Positions 1 to 44,697 of a DNA stretch of 64,000 bases are shown one piece after another. The notes beneath the pieces were generated by a model. That model was not told where the DNA came from. It searched no databases and was given only the letters and a program-made list of their open reading frames with translations. A program made the translations under genes and the position numbers. Source of the stretch: Anaerolineae bacterium (lineage in GTDB: Bacteria > Chloroflexota > Anaerolineae > B4-G1 > DUEL01); contig JBMFKS010000002.1 in assembly GCA_049972045.1 (NCBI GenBank), positions 11,511 through 75,510 of the forward strand, given 5' to 3'. Numbering within the stretch: position 1 is the stretch's first letter; each line of letters opens with the position of its first letter.

Positions 1-653
1 CCATCCGCCGCCTGCGAATGGGGGACCTGGACATCAACCCCTTCCTGGTCCGTCTGCTTTCCAAAGAGTTGGGGTTGAACGATGCCCGCTCCATCGTGCG
101 CTGGCTGGTGAACCAGCGGCTGGAGCGGGGCGCGGTGACCTCTTTCGGCCTCGCGCTTCAGAACGTAGCCAAGGTGTTCTCCGAGGGGACGGGGGTAGAG
201 GGGGCAGATATTCTGAAGACCCGCGGAGGGCGACACTACTATATCCAGGTAAAGAGCGGCCCTAATCCTATCCCCAAAGAGCAGGCAAAGCGGATCGCCG
301 AGTTGCTTCGCTCTGCCCAGCGGCGAAATCGGGGCTCTGTGGCCCTCTTCGGGATGTGCTACGGGAGCCGGGACCAGGTCTCCAGTATCGTCCGGAAGTA
401 CGTGGCAGAAGAAGGCGGCGTGGACTGGCTCGCCGGGCGGGAGTTCTGGGAGTTTATCTCCGGAGACCCGGACTGCGTGGATGAGATTGACGCCATCGCC
501 GCCGAAGTGGGAGAGACCTTCCGCGATGCTCAGGGCCAAACGCTGGCGGAGATTCTGGAAGCCAAACTGGACGAACTGGAGCAGGAGTTTCAGACCCTCT
601 ACGGAGCCAGCGGAGAATGGATGTGGCGTAACCTTCTGAAGCGGAATACATAG
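1..653 (+). CDS. 3' fragment of an upstream gene running off the window edge; putative nuclease-like partner of the adjacent methyltransferase
   Basis: The reading frame is open from position 3 through the TAG at 651-653, so the gene is 5'-truncated by the window. The stop is 12 nt before the methylase start, i.e. an operon arrangement. 'GADILKTRGGRHYYIQVKSG' resembles a PD-(D/E)xK core (D...Q-V-K); this is inference only. Confidence 0.5.
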   Translation, partial: IRRLRMGDLDINPFLVRLLSKELGLNDARSIVRWLVNQRLERGAVTSFGLALQNVAKVFSEGTGVEGADILKTRGGRHYYIQVKSGPNPIPKEQAKRIAELLRSAQRRNRGSVALFGMCYGSRDQVSSIVRKYVAEEGGVDWLAGREFWEFISGDPDCVDEIDAIAAEVGETFRDAQGQTLAEILEAKLDELEQEFQTLYGASGEWMWRNLLKRNT

Positions 654-664
654 TAAGGAACACG

Positions 665-2806
665 ATGCGGTACATAGAGCGCGATTTTCCCGTTGAGCGG
701 CTGAACCCCGTCGCGTTAGCAGAGGGAAATTCCAAGAAGCCCATCTACCAGATGCACAAATGGTGGGCGCGGCGGCTGGGAAGCGTCTTCCGCATGATGA
801 CGCTGGCGGCCTTCGTCCCGGCGGATGTGCCGGAAGACTCCCTCTGGTCCTGGTTTGCGGCGGGCGGGGCCGACCTGGAGGGCAAAATCGTCCTGGACCC
901 CTTTATGGGCGGCGGTACAACCGTTGTGGAAGCCCTCCGGCTGGGCTGCCGCGTCGTCGGCGTGGACATCAACCCCGTCGCCTGGTTTGTGACCAAAAAG
1001 GAGATAGAGCCGGTATCGCTGGAAGACTTGGACCGAGCCTTCCGCTTTCTGGAAGAGACCGCCGGGCAGAAAATCCGCCAGTACTACCGGACGACCTGCC
1101 CCGCCGGACATGAGGCCGATGGGATGTACTACTTCTGGGTCAAGGTGGCGGAGTGTGAGGAGTGCGGCGCGACGGTCCGACTGTGGCCGAATACCGAACT
1201 CTCCCTCCGGGACCACCATCATGTCGTCGTCTGCCCCGAGTGTCTCCAGGTGGTGGAGACGGCCGGGTATGACCCCCACACAGTCTGCCCGGACTGCGGG
1301 GCCGTTTTTGACCCCCGCCGGGGCAATTCGGGCCGGGGCCTCTTCCAGTGTCCGGTCTGCGGCAAGCGGCAACGGCTGATGAATGCTGCCGCGCTCCGGG
1401 ACAAGCCGCTACCGGCCGAACTCCACGCGCTGGAGGGGTACTGCCGGTCCTGCGGTCGTTTCTTCAAGCGGGTGGACGAAGCCGACCTGGCTCTGTGGGA
1501 GCAGGCGCGCGCGGAGTTTGAACGCCGCCAGGAATCCCTGCTCTTCCCCCGTCAGGCCATCCCCACCGAAGGTCGCAGCGACCCCCGTCCGGTCAATCAC
1601 GGCTACACCCACTTCTGGCACATGTTCAACGAGCGCCAGTTGCTCTGCCTTTCCACCTTGCTGGAGGCAATTCTGGAGATTCCCGACCACAACGTCCGGG
1701 AACTGATGCTTCTGGCCTTCTCGGATGCGCTGGATGCCAACAATATGTTCTGCAAGTACGAGACGGCCTGGCACAAGATCTCGGTCTTCTTCGGACTTCA
1801 TGCCTACCACCCCATTGAGCGCCCGACGGAAAACAACGTCTGGGGGACGGCGTTCGGGCGCGGGACCTTCGTGAAGTGCTTTGAGAAAGTCCGGCGGGGA
1901 AAGGCTTACGGCCAGCGCCCCTATGAGCGGATTGACGGCACTCGGTATTATGCCCGGGGGGAGCGGGCGGAAGGTATCCTGGTAGAGGACTTCGCCACGC
2001 TGCAACAGGCGTCCCGGGGCGCCCTGTTGCGCTGTCAGTCCTCCGAAGACCTTTCCTTTATCCCCGACCGGTCCGTGGATGCCGTCATTACAGACCCGCC
2101 GTACTTTGACAATGTCCAGTACTCTGAACTGGCCGATTTCTTCTACGTCTGGCTCCGGCTGGGGCTGAAGGGGGATTACCCCTGGTTTGAGCCGCCCTAC
2201 TCGGAGCGGCCGGAGGAGATTGTACAGAATGAGCGGCGAGGCAAGTCGGCCGATTTCTTCGTGGAGCGGCTGGGACAGGTCTTCGCCGAGTGCCATCGGG
2301 TGCTGAAGGACGATGGCCTGCTGGCCTTCACTTTTCACCACAACCAGGCCTGGGCCTGGGAGGGGGTGGCCCGTCTCCTCCTGCGGGCAGGCTTTTACGT
2401 CTCCGCGGCGCCGATTGTGCGCTCCGAAGGCCGCAGTGGCTTCCACTCCAGCGCCGGGAACATCCGATACGACTGCATCCTGGTCTGCCGGAAAATCCAG
2501 AGCGCACGTCGTCCATCGCAGGACAGGGATGGGTCCACCTTGAAAACCCGCATCCTGGACGATGCCTGCTACTGGATGGAGCGGACCCGAAATTCCGGCC
2601 TTCCGGTCAATCCGGTGGACGTTTTCACCGTTGTCATGGGCAAGACGGTGGAATTCTTCACCCGCGCTGTTGCGGAGGGAATGGTGAACGGTGGGGAGGG
2701 GTTTCTGACAGAATTGATGGAAGAAATGGCAGAAGAAGCACAGGCAATGGGAAAGGCGCTGGCCGAAACCGCCCTTCCCAGAGCCCGCCAACTAGCCCTG
2801 CTCTAA
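665..2806 (+). CDS. N6-adenine/N4-cytosine-type DNA methyltransferase with internal Zn-ribbons (DUF1156 / COG1743 family)
   Basis: The N-terminal 'HKWWARRL' motif is the DUF1156 hallmark as I recall it. AdoMet motif I is 'VLDPFMGGGTT' at ~nt 891-920. Catalytic motif IV is 'TDPPYFDNVQY' at ~nt 2092-2112. The I...IV order gives alpha-class topology. Several CxxC pairs lie in between (CPECLQ..CPDCG, CPVCGKRQ, CRSCGRF). Confidence 0.85.
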   Translation: MRYIERDFPVERLNPVALAEGNSKKPIYQMHKWWARRLGSVFRMMTLAAFVPADVPEDSLWSWFAAGGADLEGKIVLDPFMGGGTTVVEALRLGCRVVGVDINPVAWFVTKKEIEPVSLEDLDRAFRFLEETAGQKIRQYYRTTCPAGHEADGMYYFWVKVAECEECGATVRLWPNTELSLRDHHHVVVCPECLQVVETAGYDPHTVCPDCGAVFDPRRGNSGRGLFQCPVCGKRQRLMNAAALRDKPLPAELHALEGYCRSCGRFFKRVDEADLALWEQARAEFERRQESLLFPRQAIPTEGRSDPRPVNHGYTHFWHMFNERQLLCLSTLLEAILEIPDHNVRELMLLAFSDALDANNMFCKYETAWHKISVFFGLHAYHPIERPTENNVWGTAFGRGTFVKCFEKVRRGKAYGQRPYERIDGTRYYARGERAEGILVEDFATLQQASRGALLRCQSSEDLSFIPDRSVDAVITDPPYFDNVQYSELADFFYVWLRLGLKGDYPWFEPPYSERPEEIVQNERRGKSADFFVERLGQVFAECHRVLKDDGLLAFTFHHNQAWAWEGVARLLLRAGFYVSAAPIVRSEGRSGFHSSAGNIRYDCILVCRKIQSARRPSQDRDGSTLKTRILDDACYWMERTRNSGLPVNPVDVFTVVMGKTVEFFTRAVAEGMVNGGEGFLTELMEEMAEEAQAMGKALAETALPRARQLALL

Positions 2807-6370: not shown

Positions 6371-6443
6371 TGGCGACGGAGGGATTCGAACCCCCAACCA
6401 AGGGCTTATGAGTCCCCTGCTCTACCTTTGAGCTACGTCGCCC
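6371..6443 (-). tRNA. tRNA-Met (anticodon CAT); elongator type with a 1G:72C pair (or tRNA-Ile2 if lysidinylated)
   Basis: The reverse complement folds as a cloverleaf. The acceptor is GGCGACG/CGTCGCC+A, the D-arm GCTC..GAGC, the anticodon loop CTCATAA, and the T-arm GGGGG-TTCGAAT-CCCTC. CCA is not encoded. Confidence 0.85.
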
Positions 6444-10179: not shown

Positions 10180-10252
10180 GCCACCCTAGCTCAATCGGCA
10201 GAGCAGCCGCTTCGTAAGCGGCCGGTTGTCGGTTCAACTCCGACGGGTGGCT
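10180..10252 (+). tRNA. tRNA-Thr (anticodon CGT)
   Basis: Acceptor GCCACCC/GGGTGGC, D-arm GCTC..GAGC, anticodon stem-loop GCCGC-TTCGTAA-GCGGC, T-arm GTCGG-TTCAACT-CCGAC, discriminator T. Confidence 0.88.
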
Positions 10253-37138: not shown

Positions 37139-39214
37139 ATGGCATGGCCACTGGAGCGGGTTCGCAATATCGGGATTATCGCCCACATAGACGCGGGGAA
37201 AACCACTACCACCGAGCGGATTCTCTTTTACACGGGAAGAACTCACCGTATGGGGACGGTGGACGACGGGACCACCGTCACCGACTGGATGGTCCAGGAG
37301 CGGGAACGGGGCATCACCATCACCGCCGCCGCCGTCACCTGCTTCTGGCGCGACCATCAGATTAACATCATAGATACGCCGGGGCACATAGACTTCACCG
37401 CCGAAGTGCAGCGCAGCCTGCGCGTCCTGGATGGCGCCGTAGTGGTCTTTGACGGCGTGGCCGGAGTGGAGCCCCAGTCGGAGACCGTCTGGCGGCAGGC
37501 CCGCTCCTTCGGCGTCCCCCTCATCGCTTTCATTAACAAAATGGACAAACTGGGCGCCGACTTCGCCCACGCCACCGGGACCATCCGGGAGCGGCTGGGC
37601 GCCAACCCGGTGATGCTCCAGTGGCCCATCGGCCGGGAACTCTCTTTCCGGGGCGTGGTGGACCTGCTGGAGATGCGCGCGGTCACCTGGGTGGACGAGT
37701 TGGGCAAGGAGCCGGTGATAGAGCCCGTCCCCCCGGAACTGGCCGACGAGGTACAGGCGCTGCGGGAGCAGGTCCTGGAGCAGATTGTGGAGACCGACGA
37801 CGACCTGATGGCCCGCTACCTGGAGGGTGAGGAGATTCCAGCGGCGGACCTGCGGCGGGCCCTGCGGCGGGCCACCATCGCCGGGACCCTGGTCCCGGTG
37901 CTCTGCGGCTCCGCGCTGCGCAACAAAGGGGTGCAGCCTCTGCTGGATGCCATTGTGGACTACCTGCCCTCCCCTCTGGATATTCCGCCCGTGGTGGGAG
38001 AGAATCCCCGCACCGGGGAGCCGGAGACCCGCCCCGCTGACGTCAATGCCCCGCTGGCGGCCCTGGCCTTCAAGGTGGCCAGCGACCCCTACGTGGGCCG
38101 TCTGGTCTACGTGCGGGTTTACTCCGGCAAACTCCAGGTCGGCTCCTCCGTCTACAACCCCGGCAAGGGGCAGACGGAGCGCGTCGGCAAACTCCTGCGC
38201 ATATTCGCCCGGGACCGGGAGGAGATCACCGAACTGACGGCCGGAGACATCGGCGGCGTGGTCGGTCTCAAGGCCACCTTCACCGGCGACACGCTCTGCC
38301 CCCCGACGGCTCCGATCATCCTGGAGCCCATCGTCTTCCCGGAGCCGGTGGTCTTCGTGGCGATTGAGCCGAAGACGGCGGCGGACCAGGAGCAGTTGCA
38401 TCAGGCCCTGCGGCGGCTGGCGGAGGAAGACCCCACCTTTGTCGTCCGCACCGACGAGAACACCGGGCAGACCATCCTGGCCGGGATGGGAGAACTGCAC
38501 CTGGAGATTCTGGTAGACCGGTTGGTGCGGGAGTTCCGCGTGGAGGGACGGGTAGGGCGCCCCCGGGTGGCCTACCGGGAAACGGTGACCACCCGTGCGG
38601 AAGCAGAGGCCGTGTTTGACCGGCCCATCAGCGGGAATCCCCAGTACGCCCGGGTGCGCCTGGCGGTGGAGCCGCTGCCCTCGGGAGGAGGGTTTCGGTT
38701 TCAGGACCTCAGTCGGGGGAAACTCCTGCCGCCCCCTTTCGTCAAGGCGGTGGAGGAGGGATGTCGCGAGGCCATGGAGAGCGGTGTCCTGGCCGGTTAC
38801 CCCCTGGTGGATGTGCAGGTCACTCTGCTGGACGGGTCCTGGGACGCGGAGACCTCCACCGAACTGGCTTTCAAAGTGGCCGGGTCTATGGCCTTCAAGC
38901 GGGCGGTGGAGGAGGCGAAGCCGGTGTTGCTGGAACCGGTGATGCGGACGGAGGTGGTGGTGCCCGAAGCGTCCCTGGGGGAGGTCATCGGTGACCTGAA
39001 CAGTCGGGGCGCGACCATTGAGGGGATGGAACAGCGGCCGGGCGGCGTGCGCGCCATCCGGGCGATGGTGCCCCTCGCCCGAATGTTTGGCTATGCGACC
39101 GATGTCCGTTCCCTGACCCAGGGGCGAGGCACGTTTACGATGGAATTCCACCACTATGCACCGGTGGATAAAGAGCAGATGGAGGCCATTTTATATGGTG
39201 GTCGTGGCTGGTAG
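37139..39214 (+). CDS. fusA: elongation factor G
   Basis: '[20 protein letters not shown]' G-domain. 691 aa. Confidence 0.97.
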
Positions 39215-39290: not shown

Positions 39291-39702
39291 CAAAAAGATC
39301 GCCCAGACGGTTACGTCCTGGCTCAGAACGCGAAGCCCCCTCGGGGCGTGGCCCTTCGGCCCGAGGGCGTCGCCCCGACGGGGCTCGCCCCAAGGGGCTC
39401 GGCGTGGCCCTTCCGTCGGTGCAGAACGGCCTATTCCAGCCTACAAGTTTCTGGGGAGCCCGGCGCAGCAATCGGGAGACGCCGTCCGGGTGGTTGATGA
39501 ACTCCTTATGAAAGGGAAGTGGTGATATTGCCCAATTTTTGCCGTTTAGGTGGATGATGTCCTCGTTTTGGCACCATTGCGGCAAATGTCAAATTCTTGC
39601 AGTTTAGGTGGACGGTTGCCAGATATAGGCTATTACACGGCGATCGTCAACCTAATCCCATGTTGGGCGGCTCTACCATAGTTCTCGAACCGGAGGTGAG
39701 AA

Positions 39703-40941
39703 ATGAAACGCTTGATCAATGCCATTAGTCTTATAATAGGGCTACTTATTCTTGGGCTCTTCACAACAGTCCTCGTTTCAACATTCCAAAAGCCAACAGG
39801 GTTTGATTCTCCAGGGGCTGGCTTTACTTCTGTTCCTCCTGCTACTCCTACACCTTACTATATACCTTCTACCGAAATTCCGCCTATCACTCCAACTCCA
39901 ACTTCGGAATTAGTGCCCTTGCCTTGGCCTTCTCCAACCCCGTTGCCTCCTATTCCTTCCGAGAAACGAATAGGGTTCTGGACTGAGAATTTATTGTTTG
40001 GCTCTCCACAACCCTTTGCTAAGGGACTTAAAGATCCATTTGGTCAAATTGCCTGGTCACCAGACGGCAGCCAACTTGCGATTAGCCTCTTTACGGGGGA
40101 ATTTATTCGGGATGAGATAGGACAACCTGCGTGGGAACTCACTTGGATTGCACTGATGGATCCATCCGGTTCCTCAGTCACCCCGCTGGTCAGAGGCTTT
40201 CTCCCCTTCTGGTCTCCAGATGGACGCTATATTGCTTATCTCTTGTATTCAGATGGCTTGTCTCCACTGCATCTTCAGCTTTTTGATCTTGAAGATAAGC
40301 GAGTGATTGAAGTAGTGCCGTTTGTGAAGGGCGAGATCTTCCCAAAGATAGCTTGGCTCTCGGCTTCGGAGTTGGCTTTTTACAAAGGAGAACCAACCAT
40401 CTTCAACTTACAGGCTCAACAGATTCGGCCTCTGTTGGGGAGGGATCTTGCTTCCCAGCTGGATACAGCCGTTCCTATGGAATATATAACGGCAGCTCCA
40501 GCAGCAAAGATCTTCGCCTTAGGTTCTTCTCAGAAAATTTGGCTGATGAAATGGGAAGATGGCAAAGCACAACTCTTTCGTCAGGTAGATGATGGCTTAG
40601 ATCACGCCTATTGGGCACTCTCACCAGACGGGAACTTTTTGGCGTATGTCTCTGTCTTAAGCCGCCAGGTAAAAATTATCCGCGTTGACGATCCAACTAT
40701 CTCTGTTGAGGTTCCCGCGCAAGGACGGGGTAGCCCCCTTATTGAAGGCTGGTCACCGGATAGCACAGCGCTACTTTATGTGGATTCTGAGGGCCTGAAG
40801 ATAGTAAACCGGGATGGGTCGGGACTTTACCCTATCACCGGAGAGATTAGCCACGCCCGTTGGCTCCCGGACGGGATGCGAATTCTTGGCACAGATCTCA
40901 ATGGGCAATTGTGGGAAATAGCAGTCACTCAAAAACCATAA
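39703..40941 (+). CDS. secreted or membrane-anchored TolB-like beta-propeller protein with a Pro/Thr-rich linker
   Basis: N-terminal TM/signal 'LIIGLLILGLFTTVLV', PT-rich linker, and repeated 'WSPDG' (PD40-like) blades. Low GC. Confidence 0.7.
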   Translation: MKRLINAISLIIGLLILGLFTTVLVSTFQKPTGFDSPGAGFTSVPPATPTPYYIPSTEIPPITPTPTSELVPLPWPSPTPLPPIPSEKRIGFWTENLLFGSPQPFAKGLKDPFGQIAWSPDGSQLAISLFTGEFIRDEIGQPAWELTWIALMDPSGSSVTPLVRGFLPFWSPDGRYIAYLLYSDGLSPLHLQLFDLEDKRVIEVVPFVKGEIFPKIAWLSASELAFYKGEPTIFNLQAQQIRPLLGRDLASQLDTAVPMEYITAAPAAKIFALGSSQKIWLMKWEDGKAQLFRQVDDGLDHAYWALSPDGNFLAYVSVLSRQVKIIRVDDPTISVEVPAQGRGSPLIEGWSPDSTALLYVDSEGLKIVNRDGSGLYPITGEISHARWLPDGMRILGTDLNGQLWEIAVTQKP

Positions 40942-40955
40942 GAGAGGGGTGAACT

Positions 40956-42539
40956 ATGAGGCTTTATCACTTGATGATCAAGATATGGGTAATCCTGGCT
41001 ATAACAAGTATATGGTCTACCTTCATTATTGGTCAAGTTTATGCACAAGGGTCGTCAGGCACAAACCCCCAATGCCCCATCCCGCCCCAATCTATTCTCG
41101 TTTATTTGAACTCCTTCTACAATGAATGGCCCTCTGGCTCAAGTCGTTACCAAACACCGGCCTTTGAGAATTATGTATGGGGTGTTGTAATGGGCGAATT
41201 AGGAACTGTAGTGCCGCAAGGCCCATATCAGGGGCAAGCCTGGGATGATGAAGTCCTGCGTGCTCAAGCCGTTGCTGCACGAACTTGGGGGGCTTATTGG
41301 TGCCGAAAACGCACGTTACCTGATGGACGGCGCGGTGTCTACGATGGCGCAGGGGATCAGGTTTATCGCCCTTACTACGCTGGATTCCCTTTGGCTACCA
41401 AGATCAGGTATCAGAACGTATCCCTTGAAACAAAGGGGGTGTACATTAGCTGGGATGGATTATTGTTACAATCGCCCTATAATGGAGTATTGTTAGATGC
41501 CCAGTATCGTCGTGATGTAGGTAATCCTTCTATGACAACTTCCGAGCAACAAACTTGGAGTGCTTATCAATACCTGAAGAGCGTTAACAACCCTTACAAT
41601 GTCAACAATATTGATGACGGTGTGGGATGGGGGCAACTTCCCTCTCAAGGTTGGCGGAATACCCCAGCCCAAGGTGCTGGTTACCCCCAACTTCTTCACC
41701 AATACTATACCGGCATTTATCTGCAAAATCAGGGTTACATAACCTTTACTGAAAGGTTTTGGAACAACACAAGTTGCAGTGGAACACCAGCCTGGCAGGG
41801 GAACAGTAATAGTATTAACTACGATTGGAGCACAGGATCTCCCCGATCAGGTGTGAATAGCGATTACTTCTGTGCAGAGTGGCAGGCAAATGTACCTTTT
41901 GATGCGAGTGATTGGTACACGTTTTACCTCATAGTGGATGATGGGGTGAGACTTTATGTGGATGGAGTGCTGGTCTTGGATCGCTGGGTTGTGCAAGCTC
42001 CGACTATTTATAGCATTTCGCTCTATCTTACAAGCGGTAGTCACTCTATTCGGATGCGCTATTATGAAAATACAGGCCTGGCGGTGGCTCGTCTATCTTG
42101 GCTACGGGGGATCGGCATGATCGGGGAATATTATGATTCCATCATTAACCGCACAGGAGATCCTGGTGCGCCCGTTATCATGCTACGTCCTGATGTGCCC
42201 ATTCGATTTGACTGGCATGTTTATTCACCTCTTGACACGCGGCAACAAGGAGTTCCACGGATTTATGAAGACACCTTCTCAGCACGGTGGCAGGGACGGA
42301 TTTACATTGACCAGTGTAGGTGGATCAATTTTAGGGTGAGGTCAGATGATGGGATTATCTTGAAGATTTTCCATGATCCTTACGGGGGTGGTGAGGAAGT
42401 GTTAATTGATCAATGGCGCGACCAGCCGCCAACGAATTATAACTATTGGCGCTGGTTATGTCCGGGAACCTACCGTTTGGAGGCCCGATATTATGAAAAC
42501 GGTGGAGGAGCAGTCATTAACATCTGGTGGGAAAGATAG
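40956..42539 (+). CDS. secreted SpoIID/LytB-like domain protein with two C-terminal PA14 domains
   Basis: Signal peptide. 'LRAQAVAARTWGAYW' is the SpoIID/LytB motif. Two PA14-like modules ('YFCAEWQANVPF...IRMRYYENTGLAVARLSW'; 'FSARWQGRIYI...LEARYYENGGGAVINIWW'). Low GC. Confidence 0.7.
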   Translation: MRLYHLMIKIWVILAITSIWSTFIIGQVYAQGSSGTNPQCPIPPQSILVYLNSFYNEWPSGSSRYQTPAFENYVWGVVMGELGTVVPQGPYQGQAWDDEVLRAQAVAARTWGAYWCRKRTLPDGRRGVYDGAGDQVYRPYYAGFPLATKIRYQNVSLETKGVYISWDGLLLQSPYNGVLLDAQYRRDVGNPSMTTSEQQTWSAYQYLKSVNNPYNVNNIDDGVGWGQLPSQGWRNTPAQGAGYPQLLHQYYTGIYLQNQGYITFTERFWNNTSCSGTPAWQGNSNSINYDWSTGSPRSGVNSDYFCAEWQANVPFDASDWYTFYLIVDDGVRLYVDGVLVLDRWVVQAPTIYSISLYLTSGSHSIRMRYYENTGLAVARLSWLRGIGMIGEYYDSIINRTGDPGAPVIMLRPDVPIRFDWHVYSPLDTRQQGVPRIYEDTFSARWQGRIYIDQCRWINFRVRSDDGIILKIFHDPYGGGEEVLIDQWRDQPPTNYNYWRWLCPGTYRLEARYYENGGGAVINIWWER

Positions 42540-42715
42540 CGAAGGTGAAACGAAGAAGAACCGCCCAACCTGCGGCTGGAGCCGACCTCGCTGCGCTCGG
42601 CTGCTCAGCCGCATCTCGTTAGGCGGCTTTGCCGGTGGCTGAAGAGGGTGCGTCACCCATTGAAGAGCACAAGCAAAAGGCAGGTCTGACCCAAATTGGC
42701 ACATGAGTATGATGG

Positions 42716-42835
42716 ATGCCAAGATTCAAGATTCTCAGCGAGATCAGGGACATTGAGACCATTGCATCGGGCCGAGGTGTGTACATCCGACGCTATCTGG
42801 AGCGCACTACGGCCGAGGACATTGGCGGAAAATGA
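42716..42835 (+). CDS. mini-ORF 1 (39 aa) of an overlapping three-gene cassette in the low-GC island
   Basis: MPRFKILSEIRDIETIASGRGVYIRRYLERTTAEDIGGK. Its stop overlaps the next start (ATGA). Confidence 0.3.
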   Translation: MPRFKILSEIRDIETIASGRGVYIRRYLERTTAEDIGGK

Positions 42836-42951
42836 AAGGCATAGCCACCGTGGAACTGGCGGACGGTACAATATGTGAGGCCGAGATACATTGGTATGAA
42901 GCACACGGTATAGGCCGTAGGGATTTCAAGATCAAGAGGGTGATACGATGA
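42832..42951 (+). CDS. mini-ORF 2 (39 aa)
   Basis: MKGIATVELADGTICEAEIHWYEAHGIGRRDFKIKRVIR. ATGA overlaps on both sides. Confidence 0.3.
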   Translation: MKGIATVELADGTICEAEIHWYEAHGIGRRDFKIKRVIR

Positions 42952-43175
42952 GCGAATTTGTGATCTGCATCAACAATGACAGCAATCCGGCCAGCCTGAT
43001 TGTCGGTAAGGTGTACCGTAGATTGTCGGATCCAGAAGCTGAGTCGCACAATATGCTTCGCATTATAGATGAAGATCTATCAGAGCTTGGCGGGTATCTC
43101 TATCCGGCCTCCATGTTTGTACCTGTGGAACTACCGGAGGAAGCAAAGCAAGTGTTGATAGCGGTGGGAAGCTAA
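42948..43175 (+). CDS. mini-ORF 3 (75 aa), hypothetical
   Basis: MSEFVICINNDSNPASLIVGKVYRRLSDPEAESHNMLRIIDEDL...; AT-rich codon usage consistent with the island. Confidence 0.35.
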   Translation: MSEFVICINNDSNPASLIVGKVYRRLSDPEAESHNMLRIIDEDLSELGGYLYPASMFVPVELPEEAKQVLIAVGS

Positions 43176-43479
43176 GCGATAGGCGTACTTATTGAGGCCA
43201 TCTGGAGAGGTTGTCCACGCATGAAGAAGCCGCCTAACACCCGCTGCAGCCGACCCGTCTCCGCTGGCGCTCCGGCGGGCGGTTGAGCTTTATCGTTGGG
43301 TGCAGATGGTCCGAACGGTTACTTGGGGGTGTTTGCTGCTGGCTTTTGTACCCTCCTTGCTAACGTAAACTTGGACACCGTCTTTGCACTTTCCCGGGAG
43401 CGCGCCACCCTCCGTTGGGGGGTAAAGCGAAGGTGAACCTCTGAATCAGTGAATTATCTGACGAAAGGAGAGAAGAGAG

Positions 43480-44697
<1,218 letters not shown>

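Follow-up and report, generated by a model that had tools for sequence, protein, structure and literature searches.

The 64-kb stretch of Anaerolineae DNA analyzed here (the window) opens with what is, with high confidence, a Type II restriction-modification system complete in just two genes, in which an endonuclease gene is transcribed first, followed by the gene of a large DUF1156-type DNA methyltransferase. The two genes are separate neighbors on one strand with 11 nt between them (stop codon TAG at 651-653, start codon ATG at 665; the initial annotation of this DNA had counted 12 nt), so that the architecture of a Type II restriction-modification system is present. The methylase is not an orphan enzyme, as its start is preceded, at a distance of 11 nt, by an endonuclease ORF that looks intact. 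A restriction-modification-like defence module, as initially proposed for this edge of the window, is supported in the form of a restriction-modification pair. Its features, all on the forward strand of the window, are as follows.

3-653 (+): 3' part of the endonuclease gene (EcoO109I/PmeII-family Type II), residues 25-240 of 240, clipped by the window edge
123-254 (+): residues predicted to be catalytic in the endonuclease, E65 (nt 123-125), D93 (nt 207-209) and Q106-V-K108 (nt 246-254)
654-664 (+): intergenic spacer between endonuclease and methylase, 11 nt, with a Shine-Dalgarno-like AAGGAA at 655-660 (direct sequence reading)
665-2806 (+): DNA methyltransferase gene, 713 aa, with a DUF1156-type head, alpha-type motif order and a Zn-ribbon insert; predicted to be N6-adenine specific
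755-778 (+): DUF1156 signature HKWWARRL, residues 31-38, nearly invariant in alignment A1
902-922 (+): AdoMet-binding motif I FMGGGTT, residues 80-86, with F80-T85 invariant
1097-1453 (+): cysteine-rich part of the insert, residues 145-263, with Cys4 ribbons C164/167/190/193 and C208/211/229/232
2093-2104 (+): catalytic motif IV DPPY, residues 477-480, invariant

A promoter and terminator scan of the operon found no sigma-70-like promoter, and the terminator-like matches are weak 5-bp stems inside genes; such a scan is uninformative for this phylum.

The identity of the first gene rests on a combination of profile, fold and residue conservation evidence. Its ORF is open from base 3, with the 216 last codons visible in the window; it had been described as running off the edge, and indeed the complete gene, encoding 240 aa, is found on contigs carrying an identical methylase (at L001:9267-9989). 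The window fragment alone matches the Pfam family PF14511 (RE_EcoO109I) with 60.6 bits (E=2.3e-16, cutoff 22.5), the same family is annotated on the full-length gene in five contigs, and the identical protein is labeled by NCBI as a "PmeII family type II restriction endonuclease"; homologs of this protein number 370. No match to it was obtained in the PADLOC and NCBIfam profile libraries. An AF2 model of the endonuclease (pLDDT 87.7) predicts that its 240 residues form a nuclease fold only, and a Foldseek search of the PDB with this model returned EcoO109I (1wte/1wtd) as the sole significant fold match (for 1wte, probability 1.00, E=7e-8, TM 0.73/0.65; next-best match E=0.09), the higher TM value referring to the predicted whole-chain similarity to DNA-bound EcoO109I. 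The two proteins have in common INPF and (T/S)xFG in the N-terminal helices and GxEFW near the C-terminus, and the HMM alignment between them covers the N- and C-terminal helices, with the catalytic strands lying outside the alignment. Judged by its profile match and predicted fold, the upstream ORF is thus the PD-(D/E)xK restriction component of the defence module, a role that had been suggested for it from a possible D...QVK arrangement. The residues of that arrangement (D93 and Q106-V-K108) and also E65 are invariant across 25 homologs; we predict them to be catalytic from this conservation and by analogy with AvaII, which carries a D...QxK variant of the PD-(D/E)XK motif (E123/D147/Q161-x-K163; PMC7337904). 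The predicted metal-ligand position is occupied by Q (QVK), as in AvaII and unlike EcoO109I.

In common with EcoO109I, PmeII and TdeIII, the endonuclease is small (240 aa vs. 272 aa for EcoO109I) and comes without an ATPase. It is 17-18% identical to EcoO109I and 24-31% identical to plasmid-borne members of the PmeII family. Both close and distant relatives are named "PmeII family" or "TdeIII family" by NCBI, and the former name tells little about specificity because it is applied to relatives down to 24% identity.

The second gene encodes a methylase in which all elements listed by the initial annotation are present, i.e., the HKWWARRL signature, FMGGGTT, an insert of about 390 aa between motif I and DPPY, the CxxC pairs and DPPY itself. 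The CxxC pairs are five in number (C164/167, C190/193, C208/211, C229/232, C260/263) and, together with the conserved C145/H149, are invariant across 25 homologs in alignment A1; weak Pfam zinc-ribbon matches are also observed in the insert, and the sequence pattern suggests C145/H149/C260/C263 as a possible third zinc site. The Pfam DUF1156 profile (PF06634) scores 23.4 bits, slightly below its cutoff of 24, and the NCBI label for the identical protein is "DUF1156 domain-containing protein"; more than 7,800 homologs of the methylase were found. With so many homologs of both proteins, a chance origin of the described features can be dismissed. Two invariant loops of the methylase, residues 303-314 and 361-389, are modeled by AF2 with low confidence. 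The Pfam N6_N4_Mtase profile matches it in two stretches in permuted order (residues 72-104 aligning to profile positions 181-213), which supports the alpha-type topology assigned to this enzyme from the outset. Its motif I and DPPY align to solved beta-class N6/N4 methylases in the PDB, the best sequence matches (E=1e-5 to 4e-4), which are also local Foldseek matches, including TTHA0409/M.TthHB8I and CcrM. The Rossmann core and the sequences of motifs I and IV are common to these enzymes and the locus methylase, whereas the motif order is IV...I in the beta class and circularly permuted (I...IV) in the latter, and the approximately 500 extra residues of the locus methylase (head, Zn-ribbon insert and helical tail) lack any counterpart among solved structures.

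Such a methylase is an unusual partner for an endonuclease of this family. The methylase accompanying plasmid-borne PmeII-family members is either a C5 enzyme or a small one of the SPPY kind, vs. the 713-aa alpha-type DPPY enzyme at this locus; the partners of other PmeII-family endonucleases are m4C-type (TSPPY) or C5 methylases, and PmeII of P. mendocina is protected by m5C methylation at GGWCC. Methylase partner swapping is normal among Type II systems, and, apart from the kind of its methylase, the locus is an ordinary Type II system.

The association of these two genes is conserved well beyond the window. A genome scan of 80 related loci (methylase identity by tblastn) revealed that, where upstream DNA was available, methylases at least 55% identical to that of the window (57-72% set) nearly always have the endonuclease directly upstream. 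The pair was found in 18 further loci (L006-L016, L018, L019, L021, L022, L025, L028, L033). Endonuclease and methylase matches also share contigs and carry adjacent locus tags (e.g., M1136_04195 and M1136_04200). The endonuclease was absent in all 52 loci L034-L085 as well as in L027, L029 and L030, whose methylases are 34-47% identical. In a neighbor-joining tree, the endonuclease-linked methylases form a single clade adjoining the methylases from BREX-related operons; this clade has spread horizontally, with representatives in Chloroflexota, Bacillota, Nitrospirota, Actinomycetota, Deltaproteobacteria and some archaea, and all carriers found are metagenome-assembled genomes. The exceptions among close methylase homologs are L020 and L024, which lack the endonuclease, implying that the methylase can persist alone. 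A hidden divergent endonuclease in the L024 upstream ORF or in the 227-aa N-terminal extension was considered and rejected (hhalign probability <=0.1).

These exceptions bear on a different reading of the locus, according to which the pair is decaying, so that the methylase is effectively solitary and serves in regulation or protection, whereas the window strain has an endonuclease that is inactive or attenuated. Besides L020 and L024, it could draw on L009 and L025, where the endonuclease matches are only partial, and on residue 187 of the window endonuclease, which is D at a nearly invariant position held by Y in at least 90% of homologs, including the sister contigs L001, L004 and L005. To judge from the sequence, the window copy could be attenuated through this substitution. 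Nevertheless, the endonuclease frame is open over all 216 visible codons with the predicted catalytic residues intact, the D187 allele recurs in L002 and L003, i.e., in two or more metagenomes that are independent of each other, and the predicted structure places residue 187 in a C-terminal helix, at a distance from the catalytic motif. As for L009 and L025, their partial matches may result from errors of assembly or from artefactual frameshifts, the metagenome-assembled genomes being drafts. We therefore regard decay of the pair in the window strain as very improbable.

An entirely different context for the methylase is suggested by its relatives. In the searched literature, every COG1743/DUF1156 methylase described belongs to a multi-gene defence system of the ATPase/helicase-nuclease kind, and the link with DUF499, DUF3780 and helicase genes that the initial annotation had named for this family is documented, but holds only for other family members (PMC7641849, PMC12839542, MANTIS preprint). 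The BREX-related operons in question encode a DUF499 (ORC/Cdc6-type AAA+) ATPase and a SF2/SNF2 helicase, usually nuclease-fused, with DUF3780 in type 2 and PglZ in type 3. The locus methylase shares with HmaB, MtsC and the Type-3 BREX PglXI both the DUF1156-type N-terminal head and the group-alpha order, in which motif I comes first and DPPY last, with a target-recognition insert placed between them after core strand 2; its best PADLOC match is HmaB (98 bits), and many of its relatives at 39-47% identity adjoin HmaC/DUF499-like ATPases, PglZ-like proteins and BrxH-like SNF2 helicases. Likeness of architecture, the PADLOC match, the neighborhoods of these relatives and the literature all speak for the methylase being one component of a multi-gene BREX-related system (DUF499/DUF3780/helicase-nuclease; Hma, Gao_RL, MANTIS), the other genes of which would lie upstream of the window.

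This expectation is largely refuted by the upstream DNA itself. Five longer contigs carry the identical methylase and extend beyond the window edge, and the gene order on all of them (YceG, a HepT/MNT toxin-antitoxin pair, a FAD oxidoreductase, a class V FBPase, endonuclease, methylase; RuvX is also among the upstream genes) comprises housekeeping genes in place of the anticipated partners, Pfam annotation of these contigs revealing no DUF499 ATPase, DUF3780 or helicase gene. A tblastn search with DUF499/HmaC-like, PglZ-like, SNF2 and NOV_C proteins was likewise negative, both for the 64-kb window and for all endonuclease-linked loci, and no ATPase or helicase gene is found within about 8-10 kb in the latter. 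The sequence covered amounts to 64 kb plus about 10 kb, and this absence may not hold for the rest of the genome. Thus, unlike the BREX-related methylases, the one at this locus has no DUF499 ATPase, no DUF3780 or PglZ and no SF2/SNF2 helicase or helicase-nuclease beside it, and its score against the NCBIfam equivalog NF042963 ("anti-phage-associated DUF1156") is 130 bits vs. a cutoff of 1000. In the scanned loci, the BREX-operon relatives at 39-47% identity do keep both Cys4 ribbons and all core motifs of the locus methylase, whereas its C-terminal tail, of approximately 104 aa, is shorter by about 120 aa than in operon-embedded relatives (221-241 aa). Its immediate neighbor on the upstream side, finally, is the full gene of an endonuclease of the classical Type II kind. 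The probability that we leave to a multi-gene system with its remaining genes upstream is exceedingly small: the methylase lineage of this compact Type II pair is shared with BREX-related systems, but over the sequence covered it is not a multi-gene system. With partner genes absent and a classical Type II architecture in place, the initial statements that the enzyme is not a classical Type II methylase and that the mechanism of such systems is unknown do not apply to this locus; the multi-gene relatives have, moreover, since been characterized as MANTIS.

As to the specificity of the two-gene Type II system, the sites of characterized relatives and analogs of the endonuclease are RG^GNCCY for EcoO109I (PDB 1wtd/1wte), GGWCC for PmeII, GGNCC for TdeIII and GGWCC for AvaII. 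This family precedent points to a site of the G^GNCC type, cleaved with a 3-nt 5' overhang. A k-mer depletion analysis yielded no site-specific signal, the observed/expected ratio for GGWCC being 0.73 in endonuclease-linked vs. 0.74 in bacterial control loci. Accordingly, GGWCC as a site deduced from depletion (0.73 vs. 0.88 for GGSCC) was discarded, as taxon-matched loci without the endonuclease give 0.74 and 0.89. The host genome is also characterized by extreme avoidance of TCGA, CTAG and AGCT; these were rejected as candidate sites of the system, as pooled endonuclease-linked loci show no TCGA depletion (observed/expected 0.91), and we treat this avoidance as a separate property of the host genome.

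With respect to the methylated base, motif IV is DPPY, and by this rule of thumb N6-methyladenine is most likely the mark. The same two-gene pair might instead include a methylase producing N4-methylcytosine in a GGNCC-type site, a variant that we consider unlikely, yet one to be taken seriously. Indeed, m4C enzymes occur within the N6_N4_Mtase family, enterobacterial plasmids carry a PmeII-family endonuclease whose partner is a TSPPY (m4C-type) methylase, and the known family sites GGNCC and RGGNCCY need no adenine; in addition, m4C is common in thermophilic organisms, and the carrier hosts look thermophilic. Against this variant, the motif is an invariant DPPY and not SPPY/F, and the characterized relative MtsC, likewise a DPPY enzyme of alpha-class topology, makes m6A.

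In the proposed mechanism of the Type II pair, the endonuclease, probably acting as a homodimer, would cleave foreign DNA lacking the methyl mark, its target being a short site that is roughly palindromic, and the methylase would mark the same site on host DNA so that cleavage is blocked. The AdoMet-binding and catalytic halves of the methylase would flank a 280-390-aa zinc-ribbon insert serving in target recognition. The BREX-related (Hma/MANTIS) relatives depend on a DUF499 ATPase for DNA loading, whereas the endonuclease-linked clade would have to act alone. In the one case characterized, methylation by MtsC of the MANTIS system (Gao_RL) requires MtsA, MtsB and ATP. No such factor is encoded near the locus methylase, from which we infer that this methylase is autonomous. 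The existence of a widespread clade paired with a 240-aa endonuclease alone implies that the methylase core may be able to recognize and modify DNA unaided.

In its most specific form, this line of thought would present the clade as a "minimal" BREX-type methylation module, in which a loader-free monomeric alpha-type DUF1156 methylase modifies a single adenine of a quasi-palindromic GGWCC-type site and the cognate endonuclease is homodimeric and EcoO109I-like. We offer this as a speculative and quite unlikely extension, under which methylation of a Type IIP target would be obligately confined to one strand. Were it to hold, the clade would bridge, in evolutionary terms, the gap from classical Type II restriction-modification to BREX-related/MANTIS defence, and would be a simple model for DNA reading by large DUF1156-type methylases.

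Overall, the compact pair described here makes it far easier to approach experimentally how BREX-related methylases recognize their targets, and it is an example of modules being exchanged between classical restriction-modification and BREX-like systems. When genomes are annotated, a DUF1156 methylase alone is no evidence of a Hma or MANTIS system.

The best-supported reading of the two co-directional genes at the window edge is a classical Type II restriction-modification (R-M) system. A nuclease-only endonuclease, complete as a gene, lies next to a methylase whose cofactor and catalytic motifs are intact; the two genes share one direction and are co-inherited across phyla. The spacer between them contains AAGGAA.

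3-653, + strand: endonuclease ORF, 3' part, open from base 3, with its TAG stop (651-653) 11 nt before the methylase ATG
665-2806, + strand: methylase ORF, 713 aa
methylase residues 31-38: HKWWARRL (alignment of 25 homologs)
methylase residues 80-86: FMGGGTT (same alignment)
methylase residues 477-480: DPPY (same alignment)

The suggestion of the initial annotation that the upstream ORF is the restriction component is borne out by a match of the truncated window ORF to Pfam RE_EcoO109I (PF14511; E=2.3e-16, 60.6 bits vs. a cutoff of 22.5) and by its fold. An AlphaFold2 model built with 25 homologs (mean pLDDT 87.7) found EcoO109I, free and DNA-bound, as the sole significant PDB matches (E=2e-8 to 7e-8; TM 0.73/0.65 vs. 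1wte; next match E=0.09), these values describing a predicted model and not a solved structure. Exact look-up of the methylase yielded five longer contigs (L001-L005: two from Anaerolineae MAGs, two from JGI metagenomes, one Logan assembly); the full endonuclease is 240 aa in all five, so that 24 codons at its 5' end lie outside the window. Residues E65, D93 and Q106-V-K108, including the "D...QVK" noted earlier, are invariant in the homolog alignment. The profile alignment to EcoO109I covers the terminal helices alone. AvaII, a GGWCC relative of EcoO109I with a solved structure, displays E123, D147 and Q161-x-K163, a glutamine carbonyl serving as metal ligand (PMC7337904). Since AvaII has this E/D/QxK arrangement, D...QVK is a plausible active site, and conservation together with the AvaII analogy points to E65/D93/Q106-V-K108 as predicted catalytic residues. 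At residue 187 (window 489-491), the window allele, identical to that of L002 and L003, has Asp vs. Tyr in L001, L004 and L005 and in at least 90% of homologs.

The methylase features described from the raw sequence were all found in the 665-2806 ORF, with five CxxC pairs between FMGGGTT and DPPY plus a conserved C145/H149; the head, motifs, CxxC pairs and C145/H149 are invariant or nearly so among 25 homologs (62-89% identical). Pfam N6_N4_Mtase matches in two permuted segments, the N-terminal motif I aligning to profile positions 181-213, and this permutation confirms the proposed alpha-type topology (AdoMet half, insert, catalytic half). The Pfam DUF1156 match (23.4 bits) is slightly below the 24-bit cutoff. 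Several invariant stretches (residues 303-308 and 361-389) have low model confidence and, speculatively, would fit loops ordering upon DNA contact.

The multi-gene system that the initial annotation linked to this methylase family is absent here: no DUF499, DUF3780 or helicase gene occurs around the pair in the five upstream contigs and the window (~75 kb of genome), and neither the window nor any of the endonuclease-linked loci gave a tblastn match to ATPase, PglZ-like, helicase and NOV_C queries. With the NCBIfam "anti-phage-associated DUF1156" model (cutoff 1000), the methylase obtains 130 bits. The five contigs encode, in order towards the endonuclease, alanyl-tRNA synthetase, a Baseplate_J protein, RuvX, YceG, an MNT/HepT toxin-antitoxin pair, an FAD oxidoreductase and a class V FBPase. 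The MNT/HepT (nucleotidyltransferase/HEPN) pair (L001:5619-6303) precedes the R-M genes by ~3 kb, with the oxidoreductase and FBPase genes in between. Downstream of the methylase, the window encodes a xanthine-dehydrogenase-type molybdopterin subunit, trmD, a tRNA, a hydrolase, tyrS, an AIR-synthase-like gene and dnaN.

A methylase-alignment scan (one genome per species) yielded 80 loci, which were searched by tblastn with the endonuclease. Wherever upstream DNA is present, methylases 57-72% identical to that of the window have the endonuclease immediately upstream (L006-L016, L018, L019, L021, L022, L025, L028, L033), except in L020, where the gene upstream encodes a phosphoribosyltransferase, and L024; the endonuclease is absent from every scanned locus with a methylase ≤47% identical. 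The pairing recurred in independent protein searches as common contigs and adjacent locus tags. Its carriers, all metagenome-derived, include Chloroflexota classes, Bacillota, Deltaproteobacteria, Sumerlaeota, WOR-3, Nitrospirota, Actinomycetota, Poribacteria and some archaea. Across these carriers, the endonuclease and the methylase each keep 60-73% identity, a pattern that indicates horizontal spread as a unit. In L021 (Dehalococcoidia), the methylase (L021:8001-10217) is 66% identical and the adjoining PF14511 endonuclease (L021:7274-7990) 38%, reflecting either a swap for another PF14511 lineage or a much faster divergence of the endonuclease. In L024 (Anaerolineae), the methylase ORF (L024:5172-8027; 55% identical) is open for a further 227 codons before the usual start, either because of an N-terminal fusion or, as an artefact, because the most upstream start codon was picked; no endonuclease is detectable near this methylase.

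Neighbors at the remaining loci were clustered and representatives searched against Pfam and PADLOC. Methylases of 840-900 aa adjoin an HmaC/DUF499-like AAA+ ATPase, a PglZ-like 300-320-aa protein, a 130-150-aa small protein and a BrxH/HmaA-like SNF2 helicase, a BREX-related architecture (PMC12839542). In another group, the methylase is accompanied by a 462-aa protein of no known family, a 627-aa SNF2 protein and a NOV_C protein. This four-gene context recurs in L045, L068, L069 and L075 (e.g., L068:4270-5658, L075:11453-13336, L045:13187-14203) with a ~625-aa helicase and a 406-465-aa protein lacking any Pfam or PADLOC match. In a group of loci from Asgard archaea, the opposite strand encodes a second N6_N4 methylase; at L046, L048, L049, L051-L053, L055 and L057, the first methylase is ~690-705 aa with a GNAT acetyltransferase upstream, and the second is beta-class (383-429 aa), neighbor clustering and Pfam recognizing neither endonuclease nor ATPase. 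The head, core motifs and both Cys4 ribbons are common to all groups; the C-terminal region spans 221-241 aa in operon-embedded vs. ~104-125 aa in endonuclease-linked methylases, which form one clade beside a BREX-related group in a rough neighbor-joining tree (midpoint-rooted, without support values).

Judging from its family, the endonuclease would dimerise and cut a short, roughly symmetric site. As characterized members all have G^GNCC-like sites (EcoO109I RGGNCCY; PmeII and AvaII GGWCC), a GGNCC-type site is the prior for this pair; one distant relative carries the name "TdeIII family", the TdeIII site being GGNCC. GGWCC depletion gave no site information, since the observed/expected ratios in the host window (0.81) and pooled endonuclease-linked loci (0.73) are matched in bacterial loci without the endonuclease (0.74); the R-M genes themselves have 13 GGWCC sites. 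The invariant DPPY and the likeness to MtsC, the alpha-class DPPY adenine methylase of the multi-gene MANTIS system, suggest that the methylase makes m6A. If both m6A and GGWCC hold, the sole adenine of the bare core would be the central one, on one strand only; an m4C activity, or a site extended to include adenine, is equally open. MtsC requires MtsA, MtsB and ATP for methylation, and autonomy of the present methylase is inferred from the lack of any MtsA/MtsB-like factor encoded at the locus.

Three 4-base palindromes are nearly missing from this part of the host genome: TCGA, CTAG and AGCT occur 8, 6 and 19 times vs. ~243 expected each by base composition (window 1-64000 plus L001:1-9200), with maximal-order Markov ratios of 0.05, 0.07 and 0.13 (GATC 0.55). 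This near-absence points to selection exerted over a long time by other restriction systems of TaqI and AluI type; the TCGA depletion is not seen in pooled loci with the pair (0.91). Of the 18 AGCT sites in the window, ten (40277-43286) fall in or just past a low-GC stretch (39700-43300; 0.49-0.55 vs. ~0.65 elsewhere) between fusA (37139-39214) and tuf (43480-44697), possibly a horizontally acquired insert, which codes for a PD40 beta-propeller protein (39703-40941) and a SpoIID/PA14 protein (40956-42539). Two tRNA genes (6371-6442, - strand; 10180-10252, + strand) contain such rare sites at 6386, 6431, 10186 and 10188.

COG1743/DUF1156, the lineage to which the methylase is assigned, is described in the papers searched solely within multi-gene DUF499/helicase-nuclease systems; no description of a two-gene pairing with an endonuclease was found there, and such pairs may already be entered in REBASE as putative Type II systems. 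The endonuclease adds a new, divergent member to a known family (17-18% identical to EcoO109I, 24-31% to plasmid-borne "PmeII family" proteins). Those plasmid-borne relatives are partnered by a 264-aa TSPPY methylase or a C5 methylase, and this variety implies that partner exchange is the norm in the PmeII/EcoO109I family.
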